The position numbers and the translations under genes are program-made. Positions 9,069-23,087 of a DNA stretch of 64,000 bases are shown one piece after another. Within the stretch, counting starts at the first letter, position 1, and the number at the start of each line of letters is the position of its first letter. Source of the stretch: Escherichia coli (GTDB taxonomy: Bacteria > Pseudomonadota > Gammaproteobacteria > Enterobacterales > Enterobacteriaceae). The DNA is taken from the NCBI RefSeq assembly GCF_030013595.1, contig NZ_CP122768.1; one strand, 5' to 3'. Below the pieces are notes generated by a model. The model was given only the letters and a program-made list of their open reading frames with translations, did not search any database and had not been told where the DNA came from.

Positions 9069-9107
9069 TACATCAATGTAAGCGACTCGTCAGAACCGTA
9101 TTGATAT

Positions 9108-10679
9108 TTACTGAGAGCTCAGATCAACTTTCCAGGGCAACAGATCGCGTACCCGGTTTGCCGGCCAGTCCTGGATATGTTCAATGACGTAACGCAGCCA
9201 CTTTTCTGGCTCCACATTGTTCAGACGGCATGTGCCGATCAGCGAGTACAACACCGCCGCATGTTCACCACCGCTGTCGGAACCCGCGAACATCCAGTTT
9301 TTCCGGCCTACGGCCACTCCCCGTAAGGCGTTCTCTGCGATGTTGTTGTCGATTTCCACCCAGCCATTACTGCAGTACACGTTCAGTGCATCCCACTGTT
9401 TCAGCAGGTATGCGAACGCTTTTGCCGTATCTGAGTGACGCGACAGTGTTTTCATCTGTTGCTGTATCCAGTCATACAGTGACTGCATCAGTGGCGCGGC
9501 TCTGGCTTTTCTTGCCGCCAGACGCTGTTCTGCTGAACAGCCCCGGACCTCTGCCTCGATGGCATACAGTTCACCGATACGCTGCAGGGCTTCCGTGGTG
9601 ATGTAGGTGGGCGCTCTTGCATGCACATCGTGGATTTTTCTCCGGGCATGAGCCATACACGCGGCTTCCGTTATTCTGCCGGATTCGTATAACGCCCGGT
9701 AACCACCGTAAGCATCGGCCTGAAGCACACCGCTGTAACCGGCCAGGTGATTTTGTGGATGGATACCTTTCCGGTCCGGACTGTACGCGAACCAGACCGC
9801 CGGGGGCATCTGTGAACCGGCGTTACGGTCATCACGGACGTAGACCCACAGCCGGGCTGTCCGGGTTTTACCGCTGCCCGGCTCCTGGACCGGGACGGGG
9901 ATATCATCAGCATGGACTTTACCGGGCATCAGCACATACTGGCGCAGGACGTCATACAGCGGCTCCAGCAGTTCAGCAACAGCACCTGTCCAGCGCCCCA
10001 GTGTGGCACGGCTCAGCTCCACTCCCTGACGACGGTATATTTCTGACTGGCGGTATAACGGCAGATGGTCTGCATATTTCCCGGTGACAACATGGGCCAG
10101 AAGCCCCGCTCCGGCATAACTGCGTGCAATGGGTTTTGAAGGTACTGGTGCCTGTACGATATGGTCGCACCGGCAACAGGCCTGTTTCGGACGTTGTGTT
10201 TCGATAACCTTAAAGGCGCTGCTGATAAGCTCCAGTTGCTCTGACACATCACATCCCAGAGAACTGAGTTCACCACCACAGGCAGGACAGCATTCCTCTT
10301 CCGGCCGGATAACCCGGGTTTCACGGGGAAGTGAGGCCGGTAACGGTTTACGGGCTGAAGACTGGCGCAGGGCGGATGGCAGTACCGGGTCATATTGCTC
10401 ACCCAGCGTTTCCGCCATTTCTTCCTGAAGTGCGCTGATTCGCTCCTGTGCTTCCTGTATCTGCCGTTCGGTTTTTGCACGAAGTTTTTCTGAGCTTTTA
10501 CCGAACTGCATACGTTGCAGTTTCGCAACCAGCGCCTTCAGCCGGTTGATTTCGGAAGCATAAGCCGCCACCCGCTGTGAGAGCAGGCGGTTGTATTCAG
10601 CCATCTGGCGGATGGTGTCCTGTTGCGTCTGCAACAGTGCCCGCAGGCGGGCGTTCTCATGAGCAAGTGAGGTGTCCAT
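9108..10679 (-). CDS. tnpC: IS66-family transposase TnpC (orf3)
   Basis: 523-aa protein with an N-terminal coiled coil, a Cys-rich zinc-finger region (CPACGG...CCRCD) and a DDE-type core. Confidence 0.85.
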
Positions 10680-10698
10680 ATCCTCACTTTACAACGGG

Positions 10699-11046
10699 TT
10701 ATATGCGGATTCCAGCGCGTTCCGTTCGTTTCGGGTGCTTCCAGTTGATACCTTCAAGAAGCATGGATAACTGAGCCGGAGTAAGGTGCACCTTGCCGTC
10801 ACGGGTGACTGGCCAGACGAAGCGGCCCCGCTCCAGGCGTTTGGTGAAGAGGCACAGTCCGTCACTGTCAGCCCACAACACTTTTATCTGGTCACCCCGG
10901 CGTCCGCGGAAGATGAACAGGTGTCCGGAGAACGGGTCATCCTTCAGGACGTTCTGAACTTTTGATGCCAGGCCGTTAAAGCCATTTCGCATATCGGTGA
11001 TACCTGCAACCAGCCAGATACGCGAACCTGCAGGGAGAGATATCAT
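10699..11046 (-). CDS. tnpB: IS66-family accessory protein TnpB (orf2)
   Basis: 115-aa protein (MISLPAGSRIWLVAGITDMRNGFNGL...) typical of IS66 Orf2. Confidence 0.8.
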   Translation of the reverse strand: MISLPAGSRIWLVAGITDMRNGFNGLASKVQNVLKDDPFSGHLFIFRGRRGDQIKVLWADSDGLCLFTKRLERGRFVWPVTRDGKVHLTPAQLSMLLEGINWKHPKRTERAGIRI

Positions 11047-11720
11047 CAGTGGCTGCTCCCTTTTATTTCGCGGATAAGTGTCTGTAATAACGCCGGCGTC
11101 AGTTTACCTTTAAGCCTGAGAGTTCCGGCCGGCAGAACCAGCTCACAACACAGACTGTCGGACGGTGTATTTATCTGCTCTGGTTCCTGTGCGGGGGCCG
11201 GGATTTTATTATCCGGCTCCGGCGTTAACGTCACGGGAAGCAGTGCCGGCATATTTTTTCCGGAAGGCAGCAGGCCACCTTTCCGGTATTGATGGCGCCA
11301 GTTGAAGAGCAGGTTATCGTTGATTCCGTTTTCCCGGGCGATCTGCGCCACACAGGCTCCGGGCTGCAGTGACTGCTCCACTAAGGCGATTTTAAACTCA
11401 TAAGGGAAGTTGGGCCGCCGGGGACGTTTTTTTACCACGGGGGCTTCGGATATAACGGTGCTTTCAGGACGTACGACTGGTACCGTGGAAAATTGTCCGT
11501 AAAGGCAGGCATCAAGTTCCTGCTCCGACATGCCTGCGGGCAAAGGCCACGAAAGGCCAGCTCTCCGAAAGCGCACGAACATACTACAAACTGTTGATTT
11601 TGGTACACCCAGGCGACGCCCGGCCACAACCCGGGGTAAATGTTCTTCAAAGTGAAGACGTAAAGCTTCAGTGATCCAGGTCCGGTGTTTCATACGATAG
11701 TGTCCATTAAAAATGGACAT
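11046..11720 (-). CDS. tnpA: IS66-family TnpA (orf1) with an N-terminal extension
   Basis: Helix-turn-helix region FPYEFKIALVEQSLQPGACVAQIARENGINDNLLFNWRHQY. The stop overlaps the tnpB start. Which Met is the true start is unresolved. Confidence 0.65.
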   Translation of the reverse strand: MSIFNGHYRMKHRTWITEALRLHFEEHLPRVVAGRRLGVPKSTVCSMFVRFRRAGLSWPLPAGMSEQELDACLYGQFSTVPVVRPESTVISEAPVVKKRPRRPNFPYEFKIALVEQSLQPGACVAQIARENGINDNLLFNWRHQYRKGGLLPSGKNMPALLPVTLTPEPDNKIPAPAQEPEQINTPSDSLCCELVLPAGTLRLKGKLTPALLQTLIREIKGSSH

Positions 11721-11772
11721 TATTTTTGTAGAGCCGGAGGAAACAGACCAGACGGTTTAAATGAGCCGGTTA

Positions 11773-12237
11773 CTATTCAGCTTCATAAAGCTTTTTGAAC
11801 ATGGGGCTTTGATCCCAGGCGATCCCTTTGTAACGCTTCATATTTTTCCGCAATTCATCCTTTGAAAGATTCATAAAACGGATTTTTAATTTTTCATCGG
11901 TTTCAGTGTTGTAAACCAAATGTTCCATCCCACGCCAGGAGGACTCCAGTTTCTGAAATTCCGGATGACTCAGGATTAGTTTGATCTGCTCAGTTAATTT
12001 GAAATCGATCTGCTCAATAATCGCAGCAATACTTTTATAAGCGTCGTCACTGACGGTGACGGTATTTGTCAAAGCCTGTTGGGCCAGCGTCTGAACTGCT
12101 GCCTCAACAGCCTTTGCTGCCTGAGGTGTCTTGGGACGGAAGGCTTTATCCAGGAGCGAATCAAATTCAGTGTCCTGATAGGCAGTGGTTTGCGCAGCAG
12201 AGAGTTCGCCAGTCGCCAGAAGAGTATCGTTTACCAT
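11773..12237 (-). pseudogene. tssC: T6SS sheath large subunit TssC, truncated to the N-terminal 154 codons by the IS66 element
   Basis: Contains the conserved FQKLESSWRG block of the TssC/VipB N-terminus. The reading frame ends in a TAG formed at the IS junction, and the remaining ~350 codons are absent. Confidence 0.8.
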
Positions 12238-12261
12238 GAAAGTTCCTTAATAAAATCGCAG

Positions 12262-12807
12262 TTAGTCTGCTGTTCCCGTTTCACCTGATAAGACACTTTC
12301 CTGTTGAGCGACAGGTTTTGGCGCACTAGCCAGAGCTTTCAGTAACGTAGGGTCTTGTAATAGTTTGTTGATAAGATTTTCTGCTCCCGCTTTACCATCC
12401 ATGTAGGTTTGTAGGTTGGCAAGCTGAGTACGCGCTTCCAGCAGCTGGTTCAGGGCATCCACCTTACGGGCAATCTGCGCAGGCGAAAAATCGTCCATAT
12501 TCTCTAACGTGATATCGACCATTAACTGCCCTTCGCCCGTCAGCGTATTGGGGACAGCAAACGCCACGCGCGGCGCAATGGCTTTCATCCTCTCGTTGAA
12601 GTTATCGATATCAATATCAAGGAATTTACGATCGGTGACCGGCGGCAGCTCTTCACGCGGTTTACCCGCCAGGTCGGCCAGCACCGCCATGACAAACGGC
12701 AGTTCGATTTTTTTCTCGGAGCCGTAAATCTCAACGTCATACTCAATCTGCACGCGGGGCGCGCGGTTGCGGGCAATAAACTTCTGCGCGCTGTTGTTGA
12801 TAGCCAT
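12262..12807 (-). CDS. tssB: T6SS sheath small subunit TssB (VipA)
   Basis: 181-aa protein with the TssB signature IEYDVEIYGSEKKIELPFVMAVLADLAG. Confidence 0.85.
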   Translation of the reverse strand: MAINNSAQKFIARNRAPRVQIEYDVEIYGSEKKIELPFVMAVLADLAGKPREELPPVTDRKFLDIDIDNFNERMKAIAPRVAFAVPNTLTGEGQLMVDITLENMDDFSPAQIARKVDALNQLLEARTQLANLQTYMDGKAGAENLINKLLQDPTLLKALASAPKPVAQQESVLSGETGTAD

Positions 12808-12868
12808 AATCCTTCATTTCCTTATCAGTCAGCCGACGACCACCTGGGGAGTGGCCCGACGGTACAGT

Positions 12869-13159
12869 TTAAAAATCATACGCAGAGAGTATTTTTATAA
12901 TCTCTTTGTTTTCTTTGTACTTTTCCCGAAGCACAGGGAGTGATTTCTTCGCCGGAGGACACCAGGTATCAACCCCCTTTTCGATGTCTCTTTTATCCTT
13001 CTCTGGTAAAGAACTGTCCCATTCACCAGCAAGATGCTGGCACATTTCCGCATTACTCAGAAAATGCTGTACATCCTGTGGTAAAGACGGTTCCCCCTGA
13101 ACACTGAAAGCGAACATCATTAACAGGAATGTCCACAACACCGGATAACGAAATGTCAT
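12869..13159 (-). CDS. Small secreted protein; putative immunity protein for the adjacent peptidase-like gene
   Basis: 96-aa ORF with a predicted Sec signal peptide (MTFRYPVLWTFLLMMFAFSVQG), two Cys residues, and a start 3 nt after the upstream gene's stop. Confidence 0.5.
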   Translation of the reverse strand: MTFRYPVLWTFLLMMFAFSVQGEPSLPQDVQHFLSNAEMCQHLAGEWDSSLPEKDKRDIEKGVDTWCPPAKKSLPVLREKYKENKEIIKILSAYDF

Positions 13160-13161
13160 AC

Positions 13162-13725
13162 TTAATGTCCATCAATTGACCAGTGGGGTATATCTGTATT
13201 TCCGCCTACAAATTTTCTGACGCCGTAACCCAGACCTACCGCCTGAAGCTGGGCATTCATTCCGGTTCGATGTAGTGTATTAATTGCAACATTCTGACCA
13301 TTGCTCCCCGCAATTGTTAATGTTCCGCTCCAACTGATATTCATATCTATCGCAGTACCGCGTGTATGGTTGGAGCTCAGTGCAGGCGCGACATTCAGAT
13401 TATTCATACCATAGGCCGTAACCATAGCCTGCGCCGCTTCAAGCGAGGCTTGCTCAGTCGGGTGAACCCACTCAATATCCACCCCCTCCATCGCCGGGAC
13501 GTTTTTTGCCTGAACGATTTCCTGAGCAATCAACCATGACCAGTGCATGAGATATGCTCTGGCGGGAGGGCGATATGTTGCAGAGATACTGACCCTTGCA
13601 CGCGCATTACCAAGCGCGCGCAAAAAATTATCTACCGATGCACGAAAAGTCCCCTGCAAATCATTAGTGGAAGAACTTCCAGGAAAGCGACTGACCCACA
13701 GTGCGCCACTTAATTCTTTTGCCAT
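13162..13725 (-). CDS. Putative LAS/M15-type zinc metallopeptidase; candidate T6SS peptidoglycan-hydrolase effector
   Basis: 187-aa protein without a signal peptide. It carries an exact SxHxxGxAxD motif (SNHTRGTAID) and C-terminal His residues (IPHWSIDGH). It lies between clpV and tssB. Confidence 0.5.
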   Translation of the reverse strand: MAKELSGALWVSRFPGSSSTNDLQGTFRASVDNFLRALGNARARVSISATYRPPARAYLMHWSWLIAQEIVQAKNVPAMEGVDIEWVHPTEQASLEAAQAMVTAYGMNNLNVAPALSSNHTRGTAIDMNISWSGTLTIAGSNGQNVAINTLHRTGMNAQLQAVGLGYGVRKFVGGNTDIPHWSIDGH

Positions 13726-13737
13726 AAGGATGCTCCA

Positions 13738-16371
13738 TTAATCCGTTTCAAAAATAATCTGTTCATCCTCATCAACACGAATGCGGATTTGCGTGATGGC
13801 CGTTTTCTCTGTCATCGCCTGCAACCAATAACGGGACAGTTGTGGGAGGATATGTTGTTCGATATAGCCGATGAGCAAACGAGCGCCGGTCTCGTGCATC
13901 GGGCAGCGCGACACAATATGCGTAATCAGTTCATCGCCATACACCAGTGAAACGCCATGCCGCTCCGCCATCCGATCCATCAATCTGCCAAGATGCAGGC
14001 GGGCAATAACACCACGCGCGGTCTCATCCAGCGGTAAATAAGGAATAACCGTCACACGCCCCAGGAAAGCCGCCGGGAAGTGTTTACGTAACTCCGGCAT
14101 TAACGCCTCTTTTAACCCTGCCGAATCGGGCATCAGCGCCGGATCTTCACAGAGCTGGCTGATAAGTTCCGCCCCCGCGTTAGTAGTCAACAACAGCGTG
14201 GTATTTTTGAAATCGATGTGGACACCTTCGCCATCTTCCATCGCCCCCTTATCAAACACCTGGAAGAACAGCTCGTGGACGTCGTGATGGGCTTTTTCAA
14301 TTTCATCTAGCAATACCACGCTCCAGGGATGGCGGCGTACCGCTTCCGTCAACACACCGCCTTCGCCATAGCCGACGTAGCCGGGCGGCGCGCCTTTCAG
14401 AGTGGAGACTGTGTGAGACTCCTGATACTCGCTCATGTTGATGGTGATCAGATTCTGTTCACCGCCATAGATTGCTTCTGCCAGTGCCAGCGCGGTCTCA
14501 GTCTTGCCTACTCCGGACGGCCCGGCCAGCAAAAAGACACCCACAGGCTTACGCGGGTCACCTAAACCCGCCCGCGCGGTCTGGATACGCTCGCCAATCT
14601 GCGCCAACGCATCCATCTGCCCGGTAACACGCTGCGCCAAACGGGTGGGCAATTCCAGTATCTGACTGGCTTCATCTTTCACCATCCGTCCGGCGGGAAT
14701 ACCGGTCCAGTCGGAGACAATCTCTGCCACCACGGTTGCACTGACTTCCGGGTACACGACAGGGTTTTCACCCTGCCAGCCTCTTAATGCCGTTTCTGCC
14801 TGTTGTAGAGTGATTTCGTCGCGCTCGCCAGGCGCTGCGCCGCGTTGCTCCTGTAAACTGCGAACCAACTCCAGTTCCTGCTGCCACCGCGCTTCGGTGT
14901 CAGAAAGATCGGCATTAAGCGATATAATCCGCGCCGTCAGTACATCGCCCCGCTCCGAGCGGATACCCATTTTTTCCTGCTTTAATAACAACTCCTGCTC
15001 CAGTTCGGCAGCGTTGAGCTGCTGGCGCAGATACTGGACTCTCGCAGGCGGGGTATGCAGCGACAGCGCTACACGGGCCGCCGCCGTATCCAACAGGCTG
15101 ATGGCCTTATCCGGTAGTTGCCGGGCCGGAATGTAACGGTGAGAAAGCTGTACGGCGGCGCGCACGGCCTCATCAAGAATCAGGACATCATGGTGTTCTT
15201 CAAGCGTGGTGACTAATCCGCGCACCATCTCAACAGCCGCAACCTCTTCCGGCTCAGCAACCTGCAATACCTGAAAACGCCGGGTCAGCGCCGGATCCTT
15301 TTCGATATGGCGTTTGTACTCGCTCCAGGTGGTTGCGCCGATGGTGCGCAGAGTGCCACGCGCCAGCGCCGGTTTCAGCAAGTTGGCAGCATCCCCCGTA
15401 CCGGATGTACCACCAGCGCCCACCAGGGTGTGAACTTCATCAACAAAAAGTATCACCGGCTGCGCCGAGCGCGCGGCCTCTTCCAGCAAAGCTTTCAGGC
15501 GGGATTCAAATTCACCCTTCATGGACGCCCCAGCCAGCAGCGCTCCAACATCCAGTGACAGCAACCGCACGTTACGCAGTGAAGGCGGCACTTCCCCCCC
15601 GGCAATCGCCAGCGCGAATCCTTCCACCACTGCCGTTTTCCCGACCCCCGCCTCGCCGGTCAGCAGCGGGTTGTTCTGGCGACGGCGCAGCAGAATATCC
15701 GTCATAGTACGGATCTCGTGTTCGCGGCCGGTGACCGGATCGATATTGCCTTCACGGGCCAGCGCAGTCATGTCCTGGCAGTATTTCGCCAGCGCGGATT
15801 TACTTCCGGTTGATTCGCCGGCAAAGACCTGGCTAGCTTCCCCCGGTACTGCAGAATTTAAATCCGAGCCGTCATAAGGCATTTCTGTTAATTCAGGAGA
15901 TGAAGTGATTAAAGACGGAAGAATATCTAATAGTTCATCTACCGGTAGCTCTGCCAATGGCGCACAAATATTTTTTAACACCCGACACAATTCTGGCGTG
16001 GTTAACCAGGCAAGTAATAACCATCCACTACGAATTTTTTGATCGCCAAAGCGGATACTTGCCAACATCCAGGCTTTTTCAACAGAAAGATCGATATGAT
16101 GGGAAAAATCGTTAATTACACTCGCTCCGGCAGGCAATATATTCAATTGCTGAATTAACGCCTTCTCAACATCAGCAGATGTTATTTGATAATGTCGAAG
16201 CACATTGTGAATGTCATTCTCTGGTTGTTGTATTAACTGATGCAACCAATGCGTCAGTTCGACATAAGGATTAGCGCGTAATTTACAGAACGTCGTCGCA
16301 GATTCCAAAGATCTAAACAAAGATTTGGTTAGCTTTCCATACAGTGCACTGCGCGAAACAGGAGTGTCCAT
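13738..16371 (-). CDS. clpV: T6SS AAA+ ATPase ClpV (TssH)
   Basis: 877-aa protein with two AAA+ modules (Walker A GEAGVGKT and GPSGVGKT) and a ClpV-type N-domain. Confidence 0.9.
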   Translation of the reverse strand: MDTPVSRSALYGKLTKSLFRSLESATTFCKLRANPYVELTHWLHQLIQQPENDIHNVLRHYQITSADVEKALIQQLNILPAGASVINDFSHHIDLSVEKAWMLASIRFGDQKIRSGWLLLAWLTTPELCRVLKNICAPLAELPVDELLDILPSLITSSPELTEMPYDGSDLNSAVPGEASQVFAGESTGSKSALAKYCQDMTALAREGNIDPVTGREHEIRTMTDILLRRRQNNPLLTGEAGVGKTAVVEGFALAIAGGEVPPSLRNVRLLSLDVGALLAGASMKGEFESRLKALLEEAARSAQPVILFVDEVHTLVGAGGTSGTGDAANLLKPALARGTLRTIGATTWSEYKRHIEKDPALTRRFQVLQVAEPEEVAAVEMVRGLVTTLEEHHDVLILDEAVRAAVQLSHRYIPARQLPDKAISLLDTAAARVALSLHTPPARVQYLRQQLNAAELEQELLLKQEKMGIRSERGDVLTARIISLNADLSDTEARWQQELELVRSLQEQRGAAPGERDEITLQQAETALRGWQGENPVVYPEVSATVVAEIVSDWTGIPAGRMVKDEASQILELPTRLAQRVTGQMDALAQIGERIQTARAGLGDPRKPVGVFLLAGPSGVGKTETALALAEAIYGGEQNLITINMSEYQESHTVSTLKGAPPGYVGYGEGGVLTEAVRRHPWSVVLLDEIEKAHHDVHELFFQVFDKGAMEDGEGVHIDFKNTTLLLTTNAGAELISQLCEDPALMPDSAGLKEALMPELRKHFPAAFLGRVTVIPYLPLDETARGVIARLHLGRLMDRMAERHGVSLVYGDELITHIVSRCPMHETGARLLIGYIEQHILPQLSRYWLQAMTEKTAITQIRIRVDEDEQIIFETD

Positions 16372-16703
16372 CTGTTACACCTAATGATGTAAGAACATAT
16401 AAATGATACATAAACATAACTGTACCGATTAAAACTTCTAATTAATAGAATTATCAAAAAGGCCGAATGAAACAATGATGCATATCACAGAACACAATGT
16501 AATATAGCAGGTAGTATCTTTTTCATGGTGATATTCAATAGAGCAAGCCAATTTCATACATACCATGAATATATTAAATTGAAAATCGCCACTATATATT
16601 TCCGCGAAAACTTATATTGATAAAGTAAATTGATCAGCATTGCTTATCTAAAAATTTAGAAAACTTATTCTTTTGAAAGAAACATTCTACACAGTGATAC
16701 ACA
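16372..16703. promoter_or_regulatory. AT-rich divergent intergenic region between clpV and the FHA gene (probable divergent promoters)
   Basis: About 330 bp of strongly AT-rich sequence between two divergently oriented T6SS operons. Confidence 0.5.
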
Positions 16704-17624
16704 ATGAAACCAAATATTACGTGGGGACTCCAAAAAATACAGGCGCACGGGATCGCCGATAACACAATTTACGCGACTGAAGGAACCCAAATTATCTTCA
16801 CCGTTACCTCCCCCTGGATTCCTGTTTTTGAGGTGAATGATGATGTAAAGATTGCCCTCAGTCTGACCCGCCACGAAGAAGCATGGTGGATTATCAATCA
16901 GTCTACCGAATATTGCTGTACGGTAAACGACCAGATTGTGGAACCTCATCACCGTATGCGTCTGAATGAAGGCGACCTGATAGAATGGGGGTTATCTTCA
17001 TGGTGCCTTGTGCACGGCAATCCATCATCTCCGGACCTGAGCGCAGTAAAAACGACATCGCAGACTGCCACCATGTCGGAAACAATAACCGAATATCTGG
17101 ATCTGGATTGGTTCAGGCAGCAGCATCTGACATCACAAAATCCATTCGATATCATTCCTGTTCATGGAGCCTCCTCCACTGGAGAAGATGCTAAAAAAGA
17201 AAATGCCCTGACTCGACTTTATCAGGAATACCGCGAGGCGTTGTTATCTCCTGAACAAGATCTTCATCGCCATGCTGATCCTTTTCCCTTTAACGAAGAG
17301 CCCTCCTCACAGGATCTGGATTCATTGCGTGATCTGGTCACTGAAGCCGAGACATTGCAGGATATGGTCACTGGCGGGTTAAGCATTGACGCTATTCTCG
17401 ATGTCCTGGACGCCACCGGCGAAGGGGAAACCGCCTGGCCTGCCGAAAAGACGCCCCCAGATATCCTGCACCTGCTATCCCCGGAATGCGCACCGGAAAC
17501 AGCGCATAACACCGTTCTGCCCGACCTGACACGCAAAGAGCATCGCATCATTGGCATTGACATTGACAGCCATTATCGGATAAACCCGGCACAACACGGA
17601 GAGATATCTCATGACAAACAATAA
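16704..17624 (+). CDS. tagH: T6SS-associated FHA-domain protein (TagH/Fha-like), short form
   Basis: N-terminal FHA-like domain and an acidic C-terminal half. First gene of the + strand T6SS operon. Confidence 0.65.
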   Translation: MKPNITWGLQKIQAHGIADNTIYATEGTQIIFTVTSPWIPVFEVNDDVKIALSLTRHEEAWWIINQSTEYCCTVNDQIVEPHHRMRLNEGDLIEWGLSSWCLVHGNPSSPDLSAVKTTSQTATMSETITEYLDLDWFRQQHLTSQNPFDIIPVHGASSTGEDAKKENALTRLYQEYREALLSPEQDLHRHADPFPFNEEPSSQDLDSLRDLVTEAETLQDMVTGGLSIDAILDVLDATGEGETAWPAEKTPPDILHLLSPECAPETAHNTVLPDLTRKEHRIIGIDIDSHYRINPAQHGEISHDKQ

Positions 17625-18947: not shown

Positions 18948-20830
18948 ATGGATCCACGGCTACTGGAATACTACAACCGCGAACTGAGCTATCTGCGGGA
19001 AACGGGAGCCGAATTTGCCGCCCGTCATCCTAAAGTCGCCGCCCGACTGGGTATGCAGGGAACGGATATTGCCGATCCGTATGTGGAGCGAATGGTCGAG
19101 GCCTTCAGCTTCCTGACCGCCCGCACGCAGCTAAAAATTGACGCTGAATTCCCCCGTTTCACCCAGCGTCTGCTGGAAGTGGTCAGCCCCAATTACGTCA
19201 CACCCACGCCCTCAATGAGCGTGGCGCAGCTTCATCCCAATCCGGAAGAAGGCGATCTGGCGAAGGGATTCACCGTCCCGCGCAACACGGCCTTTTTTTC
19301 CGCCATTCCGGAAGGCGAAAGTACCGCCTGCCAGTTTCGTAGCAGCCAGAATGTGACGCTGTGGCCGCTTGCCATCGAAGAGGTGCGGCTGACCGCCGCG
19401 CCGCCGGATATGCCTGCCCTGCACCGCTACCTGCCAGCCAACATTCACGTCGCTGGTGCGCTGCGTATTACCCTGCGCACCTTTGGTGAACTGACGTTCA
19501 GTCAGCTTGCAGGGCTGAACAAGCTGCCATTTTATCTCTGCGGCGAGGAGCGCACGGCCTCACACCTGTTCGAACTACTGCATACCAGCGCCATCGCGAG
19601 CCTGGCTGGCATTCCGGGGCATTTTGACGGCGCACTGGATGTGAATCTGAAACAGCCCGTTATGTACGAAGGCCTGGATCCGGATCAGGGACTGTTGCCG
19701 CTGGCGTGGAATGTGTTTCACGGCCATAACCTGCTACATGAATATTTTACCTGTCCGGAACGCTTCTTTTTTTCACCCCGACAGGCCTGTCTGCCGGGTT
19801 ACAGAAAATTAACGGCGGCGTGGCGGAGATTGTTATCCTGCTGAACCGCCTGCCGCCGGACTGGCTGATCCACCAGACAAACGCGGCACAGTTCAGCCTG
19901 TTCTGTACCCCGGTTATCAACCTGTTTCCCCGCGTCGCCGCCCGGATCGATGTCACGCACAGCACGACGGAACAGCATCTGGTGGTGGACAGAACCCATC
20001 CGCTGGATTATGAGGTGTTCTCGGTCCAGGAAGTGGAAGGGCTGGAAACTGACACCACACGGAAGATGGCCTTTCGCCCGCTCTACCACACCCGCAATAA
20101 TGATGAAGGCAATCACGGACGTTATTTTTCCCTGCGCCGGGAGCCGCGCCGGTTGTCGGAAAATGCCCGCCGCTATGGCACCCGCACCTCCTATACAGGA
20201 TCAGAAGTGTTCCTGTCGCTGGTTGACCAGTATGAAGCGCCGTACCCGGAAAATCTGCGCCATATCACCATCACGGCTATGGTCACCAACCGCGATCTGC
20301 CCTGTCTTATTGCCCGCAATGGACGGGACGATCTGACCGTGGATGCGGCCATCCCGGTGGCGGGCGTGGGGCTTATCCGTCCGCCGCGTCCGCCGCAGCC
20401 TCCGCTGGCTGAACGTGAAATGGCCTGGCGGTTGATCCGCCAGTTATCCTTTAACTATCTGCCGCTGGCCGATCTGGATCACCGTACCGGTGGTCAGGCG
20501 CTGCGCGATCTGCTTAACCTGTTTATTCCGGCGCATGACAGTCCGCAGTCGCGCCAGGTGCGCAGCCTGATTGGCTGCAACACCACCCCGGTCACCCGCC
20601 GTCTGCCCGGTTCCGGGCTGCTGGTCTATGGGCGCGGCGTCAGTTGTGAACTGACCGTGGATGAGGAGGGGTTCTCCGGTATCAGTCCGTATCTGTTCGG
20701 TCTGGTGTTGGAGCACTATATCGCCCGTCATGTTTCCATTAATACCTTCTCGCAGATGACGCTGCACAGCATGCAGCGCGGCAAAATTATGACCTGGCCT
20801 GCCAGGGCGGGACAGCGGGGAAGCGTATGA
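18948..20830 (+). pseudogene. tssF: T6SS baseplate protein TssF, interrupted by a frameshift in a T7 homopolymer
   Basis: Two overlapping ORFs (18948-19844 and 19820-20830) together give a TssF-sized protein of about 620 aa. The frame changes inside the T-run at 19767-19773. Confidence 0.75.
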
Positions 20831-23010: not shown

Positions 23011-23087
23011 TGGCGGAACGGACGGGACTCGAACCCGCGACCCCCTGCGTGACAGGCAGGTATTCTAACCGACTGAACTACCGCTCC
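23011..23087 (-). tRNA. aspV: tRNA-Asp (GUC)
   Basis: The reverse complement reads GGAGCGGTAGTTCAGTCGGTTAGAATACCTGCCTGTCACGCAGGGGGTCGCGGGTTCGAGTCCCGTCCGTTCCGCCA. Confidence 0.95.

Follow-up and report, generated by a model that had tools for sequence, protein, structure and literature searches.

The locus analysed here raises the question of how an E. coli T6SS gene cluster comes to end in a single insertion sequence whose two flanks do not match. In the 64-kb stretch of DNA under study (the window), the T6SS island lies between aspV and yafV, and an intact ISCro1 element of the IS66 family joins a stump of tssC to the remnant of another gene near the yafV border of the island (Table 1). According to the original prediction, the IS had inserted into tssC and had then mediated an adjacent deletion. 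Our comparisons uphold an IS-associated event, and we put the probability that an ISCro1-anchored deletion happened at roughly 95%, whereas they fix neither its mechanism nor the order of its steps.

Table 1. Position, strand and supporting evidence of the features surrounding the ISCro1 element in the window.
Feature	Coordinates	Strand	Evidence
SymE-like ORF, unaffected, where the island borders yafV	8540..8773	+	NF010128, E=2e-9, below cut-off
5'-truncated remnant of a 97-aa gene, 85 codons and stop	8820..9077	-	Comparison with relatives
ACATCAAT, last 8 bp before the IS; left breakpoint, L001 5210-5217	9070..9077	.
ISCro1 (IS66 family), intact, 2,696 bp	9078..11773	-	Match to annotated ISCro1 copies
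Terminal inverted repeat, tnpC-side end (IRR, usual convention); deletion junction	9078..9103	.	Flush with duplications in other copies
tnpC, IS66-family DDE transposase, 523 aa	9108..10679	-	NF033517, 477.9 bits, cut-off 180
tnpB, IS66 accessory protein, 115 aa	10699..11046	-	NF033819, 128.9 bits, cut-off 50
tnpA, IS66 accessory protein, 224 aa from first ATG	11046..11720	-	NF038385, 295.8 bits, cut-off 150
Terminal inverted repeat, tnpA-side end (IRL); retained original insertion junction	11748..11773	.
tssC stump, 154 native codons and hybrid TAG stop	11773..12237	-	Native TssC is 504 aa
TATTCAGC, sole remaining copy of the 8-bp tssC target	11774..11781	.	Duplicated in PK-F-10122, single in uninterrupted tssC
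Intact tssB, beyond which the sheath operon no longer has an intact gene	12262..12807	-	TIGR03358, 190.3 bits, cut-off 97.25
tssF, split by a 1-bp deletion	18948..20830	+

Identity and boundaries of the ISCro1 element

ISCro1 was first named in Citrobacter rodentium ICC168 and is widespread in E. coli. Annotated copies with 99.9-100% identity to the window element are present in 2,911 of the 5,426 complete E. coli genomes, and full-length near-identity to the reference ISCro1 (99.9-100%, at least 80% coverage) is found in 1,492 genomes. Genomes carrying matches contain the element at a median of two places and at up to 34, and in C. rodentium it has expanded to 24 copies (PMC3072379). The three genes tnpA, tnpB and tnpC all score above the curated cut-offs of NCBIfam equivalog models, in the same order as in the annotated copies; the RefSeq annotation differs in the start of tnpA, which there encodes 215 aa.

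The terminal repeats are imperfect, as had been predicted: GTAAGCGACTCGTCAGAACCGTATTG (9078-9103) and the reverse complement of 11748-11773 agree at 18 of 26 nt by manual count, and a repeat search retrieved 22 nt at 73% identity. The element begins with GTAAGCG and ends with GGTTAC. The same termini occur at 24 other sites and are flush with 8-bp duplications in 18 of these copies, so that the ends can be considered correctly placed. The right-hand end is therefore 11773 and not 11775, as first proposed, a position that included 2 nt of the flank.

With the termini defined precisely, the element is still devoid of a target-site duplication, since the 8 bp on its two sides (ACATCAAT and TATTCAGC) differ. 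The original prediction was also right in expecting 8-bp repeats for such an element: the 24 distinct sites surveyed comprise 18 with an 8-bp duplication, one with a 9-bp duplication and five with none, which means that about 21% of the copies (approximately one in five) lack it. The missing duplication reflects a later rearrangement and does not count against membership of IS66 and ISCro1. The window copy thus resembles other ISCro1 copies in its tnpA-tnpB-tnpC organisation, its termini and its near-identity, but differs from them by the absent duplication and by a length of 2,696 instead of 2,699 bp, one ATG of an ATGATG near position 11712 being lost with respect to the canonical copies.

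The ISCro1 part of the copy located in tagK of the near-identical E. coli HCP5S3_I2 is identical to the window IS. A 2,696-bp variant common to both was considered and rejected, the tagK copy being a canonical ISCro1 with a nested IS3-family element; in this comparison the 3-bp difference had been absorbed into an alignment gap, and it was exposed by inspection of the junctions.

A 26.7-kb segment of the T6SS island is missing

The flanks of the element are about 99.98-100% identical to HCP5S3_I2 (L001), in which 26,726 bp separate the end of the left flank (L001 5217) from the start of the right flank (L001 31944). This segment carries tssC codons 155-504, tae4/tai4, hcp, tssJKLM, tagF and vgrG. 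It also includes Rhs genes, the immunity genes that go with them, and the opening 12 codons of a gene encoding a putative Rhs immunity protein of 97 aa. No part of it occurs elsewhere in the 64-kb window. The remainder of tssC and the distal T6SS genes have thus been removed, in agreement with the original prediction. The left breakpoint falls exactly at G9078, the outermost nucleotide of the IS on its tnpC side; beyond ACATCAAT, the HCP5S3_I2 sequence runs on as AATAGTTT.

On the right-hand side, the native tssC codons extend from 12237 down to 11776 and are closed by a hybrid TAG: its first two bases belong to tssC, whereas the G is contributed by the IS as the complement of its terminal C. 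The reading of this gene as cut after codon 154, with a partly IS-derived stop, was accurate. TIGR03355 matches the stump only over profile positions 3-132 of 473 (122.3 against a cut-off of 271.5); tssC is here a pseudogene stump and the full-length VipB/TssC domain is absent. Further along, tssF has lost one base of a T-run near 19766 as compared with HCP5S3_I2, a frameshift which indicates that the remnant T6SS genes are decaying.

On the left-hand side, the 82-aa ORF of the original prediction corresponds to positions 8820-9068 of an 85-codon 3' remnant and is not a natural gene. The intact 97-aa gene is found in other genomes 10 nt downstream of Rhs C-termini carrying PF24494/DUF7587; its natural neighbour is therefore an Rhs C-terminus and not tssC codon 154, in keeping with the original prediction. 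The 97-aa protein matched no family in Pfam or NCBIfam, and from the position of its gene we infer an Rhs immunity function. For the adjoining SymE-like ORF, PF08845 is on record and the annotation is that of a SymE-family toxin.

Recurrence of the junctions in public assemblies

Both junctions are identical in L076 (GCA_900448395.1, a 3.43-Mb contig) and in L077 (GCA_021649405.1), the left junction is identical in L084, and the 154-aa tssC stump is recorded in 70 blocks of public assemblies. Such recurrence of both junctions in independent assemblies indicates a clonal event. The left junction was found in 0 of the 5,426 complete genomes, among which the left-flank sequence is itself rare (at least 80% covered in only two). 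A search of genome contigs with an exact 48-nt IS-end pattern, which proved too strict, returned one irrelevant match.

Insertion into tssC

In strain PK-F-10122, ISCro1 is present as a simple insertion at the same tssC nucleotide and in the same orientation, bordered by a perfect 8-bp duplication of TATTCAGC. The tssC junction of the window is therefore an ordinary insertion junction, and it is the other end of the IS that bears the mark of the deletion. Common ancestry of the two insertions is unlikely: the flanks diverge 15 nt beyond the junction, and the PK-F-10122 element differs from the window copy by one substitution and a 3-bp indel. Searching for the 326-aa C-terminal TssC fragment that such an insertion should leave retrieved no simple-insertion intermediate with the window tssC allele. 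This negative carries little weight, since the outcome hinges on the start codon picked by the gene caller; with the PK allele, the same search returned matches. We favour an order in which the tssC insertion came first, although the order could be reversed, since TATTCAGC appears to be a preferred target.

Recombination between two ISCro1 copies or one-step deletion

The route that we propose, as an evenly balanced call, is the insertion of a second ISCro1 followed by recombination between two direct copies. ISCro1 would first have entered tssC at TATTCAGC by simple insertion, with its tnpA-side end facing the 5' part of tssC, as in the analogous case of PK-F-10122; for the window allele, the corresponding junction is predicted to read ...CTGTCCATATTCAGC/GTAAGCGACTCG (the slash marks the junction). 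The second step, whose outcome is visible in the window and whose route is conjectural, would be the loss of everything from the other TATTCAGC copy to 12 codons into the orphan Rhs-immunity gene near symE/yafV. The immunity gene would have received a second, identically oriented ISCro1 at ACATCAAT, with the predicted junction GAGCCGGTTAC/ACATCAATAATAGTTT. The two-copy intermediate, with the second element bordered by its own duplication, would carry the junction GGTTAC/ACATCAATAATAG. RecA-type homologous recombination between the direct 2.7-kb copies would then excise the interval and leave one IS bordered by the outer half of each duplication.

The same signature is documented for IS66 in Agrobacterium pAt15955 (PMC6778807), and the multi-copy nature of ISCro1 noted above also speaks for this route. 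Variation at this very junction also points to recombination. One such case is clone-mate L078, whose IS at the tssC junction is cleanly chimeric: it is identical to window positions 10811-11773, has 60 mismatches in 9085-10810 and is joined to a distant locus. Within the clone, the IS found at this junction may be canonical, lack 3 bp, have one extra A or carry a nested IS3-family element. The L078 chimera could however stem from the assembler changing paths across the 960 bp that are identical, and the window IS, which matches the ISCro1 part of the tagK copy without any difference, is not mosaic and so retains no recombination footprint. ACATCAAT fits the weak target preference of ISCro1, but this is weak evidence in an AT-rich region, and no second ISCro1 at the ACATCAAT site, and hence no two-copy parental state, was found in the genomes and assemblies searched.

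The one-step adjacent deletion of the original prediction, taken literally, supposes that a single tssC ISCro1 underwent intramolecular transposition, its ends attacking ACATCAAT 26.7 kb away and the interval leaving as a circle. This explanation is plausible, if somewhat doubtful. It predicts the observed sequence exactly, with a flush breakpoint, the tssC junction kept and no duplication, and it economises on one transposition event as well as on the two-copy intermediate that was not found. The approximately 21% of ISCro1 copies devoid of duplication are compatible with frequent rearrangements anchored at IS ends, and ACATCAAT again agrees with the weak target preference. However, the literature searched gave no experimental evidence of replicative or intramolecular strand transfer in the IS66 family, and the sole documented IS66-family deletion that we found was due to recombination between two copies (PMC6778807). 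The sequence outcome is as expected from a one-step deletion, but recombination accounts for it equally well: the two routes give the same product and the sequence cannot separate them.

Other explanations of the arrangement

An illegitimate or microhomology-mediated deletion, independent of the IS and ending at it by chance, is very improbable. Spontaneous deletions do occur in the repetitive Rhs/T6SS island, and truncated T6SS forms have been reported (PMC5422975); against this, the breakpoint coincides to the nucleotide with the terminal G of GTAAGCG, and the junction shows no microhomology, the reference continuing with A where the IS starts with G. IS repeats often cause misjoins, so that the window could in principle derive from the collapse of two ISCro1 copies surrounding an intact 26.7-kb segment, but such an artefact is hardly credible given the identical junction pair in L076 and L077 and the absence of the segment from the window. 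Finally, an ancestral short arrangement, with a gain of 26.7 kb in the relatives, is refuted by reading-frame continuity: both joint genes are truncated in the window (154 of 504 codons for tssC, 85 of 97 for the immunity gene), the missing DNA completes both frames in the relatives, and the T6SS core genes are collinear in many genomes.

Target choice of ISCro1 in tssC

ISCro1 insertion sites show a weak preference: position 4 is T in 30 of 48 sites, and positions 3 and 6 tend to be W. A strong consensus was sought and only this weak one exists; a TCA/TCAG register motif was discarded as post hoc, part of the site sample having been selected by flank similarity.

The tssC site TATTCAGC is occupied by ISCro1 in the window clone, in PK-F-10122/L098 with another tssC allele and another IS variant, and in SRR31598817 in the opposite orientation. 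It looks like a recurrent ISCro1 hot spot. The repeated choice of the same 8 bp could offer a way of examining how elements of the poorly understood IS66 family select their targets. The combined proposal of a genuine hot spot with at least three independent insertions and of a deletion by one-step intramolecular transposition seems unlikely to us. If it were true, the i1 T6SS of E. coli would be switched off recurrently by ISCro1, and a one-step deletion would give the first indication of the strand-transfer mode of an IS66-family transposase.

Discussion

The deletion has cost the strain the sheath large subunit, Hcp, VgrG, TssJ/K/L/M, the Tae4/Tai4 and Tlde1 modules as well as the toxin and immunity genes of the Rhs type. 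With these genes gone, the T6SS of the aspV island is dead and several immunities are lost. Judging from gene content, the strain should be unable to attack kin that keep the T6SS, and it should be sensitive to the effectors of such kin because the Tai4 and Rhs immunity genes have disappeared. Both tssC and the small ORF on the other side of the IS are to be annotated as pseudogene fragments. IS-driven decay of a variable island is of an already-known kind and conceptually nothing new; wider interest is limited to the possible tssC hot spot.

For IS1, IS903 and IS10/IS50, adjacent deletions arise by demonstrated replicative or intramolecular pathways. The window arrangement resembles their products in keeping one IS end at its original junction while the other adjoins a new site of the same replicon, with no duplication. 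It differs from them in the state of the evidence, as we found no demonstration of a replicative or intramolecular pathway for the IS66 family in the literature searched.

In the yafT-to-impA region, the subtype i1 T6SS of E. coli has been described in variable and truncated forms (PMC5422975). These belong to the same type of chromosomal island and likewise adjoin an Rhs element, but the ISCro1 junctions described here were not resolved in that study. ISCro1 is also known from an "IS integration hot spot" in the afa/dr regulatory region of ST131, where it is bordered by the duplication TATTCAGA (PMC8764528). This duplication and the tssC target TATTCAGC agree at 7 of 8 nt; in contrast to the window, the afa/dr element is a simple insertion that affects transcription and is not accompanied by a deletion.

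A close parallel is the deletion of about 270 kb, flanked by IS66, in Agrobacterium tumefaciens pAt15955, with an equivalent state in pAtAch5 (PMC6778807). Recombination is demonstrated there by the observation of both parental copies, whereas the second copy is hypothetical in our case. In both systems, a single IS66-family element is left between unlike 8-mers, and in pAt15955 each of these is the outer flank of one parental copy.

A 26,726-bp deletion in the T6SS island

Just two complete genomes, HCP5S3_I2 and LCP30S3_I5, contain the whole left flank of the insertion (8430-9077), and both also carry the right flank (11774-12810) at 100% identity. When the window was aligned to the locus of the near-identical strain HCP5S3_I2 (L001), positions 3861-9077 matched L001 1-5217 and positions 11774-16362 matched L001 31944-36532, with one mismatch in each segment. 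The intervening 26,726 bp (L001 5218-31943) are missing from the window, and the loss of the tssC remainder and distal T6SS genes put forward in the original prediction is thus confirmed. DNA of the L001 interval completes both interrupted reading frames. According to the RefSeq annotation, it contains the first 12 codons of a 97-aa gene, orphan Rhs C-terminal fragments with small ORFs, genes for an ankyrin-repeat protein, a full-length Rhs, a DcrB-like protein and VgrG, TagF-domain genes, tssM, a Tlde1-domain gene and its neighbour, tssL, tssK, tssJ, hcp, tai4, tae4, and tssC codons 155-504. As had been read from the window, the tssC stump comprises 154 native codons and ends at a TAG; the G of this stop is supplied by the terminal base of the IS.

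Among public assemblies, 70 blocks record the exact 154-aa TssC stump. Two assemblies of the same clone share both junctions with the window without any difference, GCA_900448395.1 (L076, a 3.43-Mb contig whose IS carries a nested IS3-family element) and GCA_021649405.1 (L077), and the left junction is identical in a third, GCA_021646965.1 (L084). The deletion is therefore inherited within the clone and was not created by the assembly.

The 82-aa ORF at the left breakpoint does adjoin the IS, as first described, but is the truncated 3' part of the 97-aa gene and not an intact gene. In L085-L094 an Rhs C-terminus with PF24494 (DUF7587), belonging to a full-length or an orphan Rhs, is invariably found 10 nt upstream of this gene. 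Pfam and NCBIfam searches returned no family for it; given its constant place, its product is probably an uncharacterised cognate Rhs immunity protein.

Termini and target duplications of ISCro1

The window is chromosomal, with the order lpcA-fadE-ivy-yafV, T6SS island, aspV, dnaQ, rnhA and an rRNA operon. The 2,696-bp element is ISCro1: it shows 99.9-100% identity to annotated copies, and tnpA, tnpB and tnpC each score above the NCBIfam curated cut-off for the IS66 family. Matches to ISCro1 occur in 2,911 complete E. coli genomes out of the 5,426 searched.

Positions of features in the window
Feature	Position	Strand
97-aa gene, truncated part	8820-9077	
tnpC	9108-10679	minus
tnpB	10699-11046	minus
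tnpA	11046-11720	minus
Region compared with L001 36533-37862 and 38731-42853	16357-17225	
tssF	18948-20830	
tRNA-Asp (aspV)	23011-23087	

The terminal repeats agree in 18 of their 26 nt and the flanking 8-mers, ACATCAAT and TATTCAGC, are unlike, both as predicted; the right end, placed at 11775, is at 11773. Left and right termini of ISCro1 copies were collected from chromosomes of E. coli and from IMG/VR prophage contigs. A perfect 8-bp duplication lies flush with GTAAGCG...GGTTAC in 18 of the 24 distinct full-length sites (window excluded), so that the termini are correctly placed and an absent duplication is meaningful. One further site has a 9-bp duplication and five have none (L013, L020, L034, L043 and L047). 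In the prophage subset, where sites were not selected for flank similarity, the duplication is present in 8/12 and absent in 4/12. A missing duplication is thus common for ISCro1, at about one copy in five, and rearrangements anchored on it are accordingly frequent.

In the window copy, one ATG of ATGATG is missing at about 11712, a 3-bp loss at the tnpA 5' end. At exactly this position, other ISCro1 copies carry a nested IS3-family element (~1.42 kb, 4-bp AAAA duplication), namely in tagK of HCP5S3_I2 (L001 41369-42795), at the same tssC junction in L075 and L076, and on several plasmids. Imprecise excision of such an element may have left the 3-bp loss as a scar, or simple slippage may account for it. 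The composite of ISCro1 and IS3 (ISCro1::IS3) seems to be mobile as a whole.

The tssC site as a recurrent target

In strain PK-F-10122 (L002), ISCro1 occupies the same tssC nucleotide in the same orientation, with the rest of tssC on its other side and a perfect TATTCAGC duplication (L002 9417-9424 and 12124-12131). This octamer is single in uninterrupted tssC, and the window copy is at 11774-11781. The right (tnpA-side) junction of the window is therefore indistinguishable from that of a normal insertion, and the left (tnpC-side) junction is the new one. A single substitution and a 3-bp indel separate the PK-F-10122 IS from that of the window, and the two tssC flanks part from 15 nt past the junction onwards, with 2-5% divergence; on these differences the two insertions look independent.

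Besides the window clone, TATTCAGC is used by a canonical IS in the same orientation on another tssC allele (PK-F-10122 and L098, the latter over its first 30 nt). In L100 (SRR31598817) the orientation is the opposite one, again over the first 30 nt: the IS borders the 3' part of tssC with its tnpA-side end instead of its tnpC-side end. This octamer of tssC appears to have been used independently at least three times, possibly a new observation. The general target preference of ISCro1 is weak, and the copy at the ST131 afa 'hot spot' has the duplication TATTCAGA; with so weak a preference, the recurrence suggests a local hot spot in tssC for which the 8-mer by itself does not account.

Origin of the deletion

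In the reading to which we give a probability of about 0.5, a second ISCro1 would have inserted in direct orientation at ACATCAAT, and homologous recombination between the two copies would then have removed the interval. An identical flank-mismatch signature of IS66 in Agrobacterium pAt15955 arose by two-copy recombination (PMC6778807), and the several IS variants at the same tssC junction within the clone also count in its favour. Against it, a two-copy intermediate was sought and not found, and the window IS is not mosaic. A further point in its favour comes from clone-mate L078 (GCA_021649585.1, reverse-complement positions 950-3645), where the IS at this tssC junction is a clean chimera, with no difference from the window over 10811-11773 and 60 over 9085-10810. 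The locus joined to its left side is found at a different place in other E. coli genomes (in strain E2865, beside the aerobactin and cah genes). Either two IS66-family copies recombined to give this chimera, or the assembly switched paths here.

Alternatively, a single ISCro1 could have transposed intramolecularly into ACATCAAT, deleting the adjacent DNA in one step. We regard this as quite possible, at below even odds. It yields the same sequence as two-copy recombination, and literature searches found no published evidence for or against such a transposition pathway in the IS66 family. An IS-independent deletion, an assembly artefact and an ancestral short arrangement jointly share the remainder.

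As to the order of events, we favour the tssC insertion as the first, because its junction is common to clone members with different left partners (L075, L078), although these could instead derive from the deleted state. L075 (GCA_021649245.1) shows a further rearrangement, this one with the nested IS3 as its anchor: on the left of that element, IS21-family genes, a ParE toxin gene and a TIR/SEFIR gene stand in place of the ISCro1 body.

The remaining T6SS island

Only tssC', tssB, two small ORFs, tssH, tagK, tagJ, tssE, tssF, tssG and tssA are left, a gene content with which the T6SS cannot function. Compared with HCP5S3_I2, tssF has lost 1 bp of a T-run at about 19766 and now reads as two ORFs, which is either further decay or a homopolymer sequencing error. 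A 94-nt 'tRNA-His' called by ARAGORN within the tssF coding region (20613-20706) is almost certainly a false positive.

In HCP5S3_I2, the end of tssH carries an IS3-family element (L001 36533-37862), and ISCro1::IS3 sits in tagK (L001 38731-42853, duplication CTTTATCA). The corresponding part of the window (16357-17225) contains neither element, and its tagK is intact; in the 3' region of tagK (17555-17560) the two strains are set apart by an in-frame indel of 6 bp (CATTGA). The flanks are 99.98% identical, yet the two strains differ by three IS events in this island. Truncated, probably non-functional subtype i1 clusters are known from the yafT-to-impA region (PMC5422975), and the ISCro1 element, the textbook IS-anchored deletion and the instability of this locus were likewise already known.
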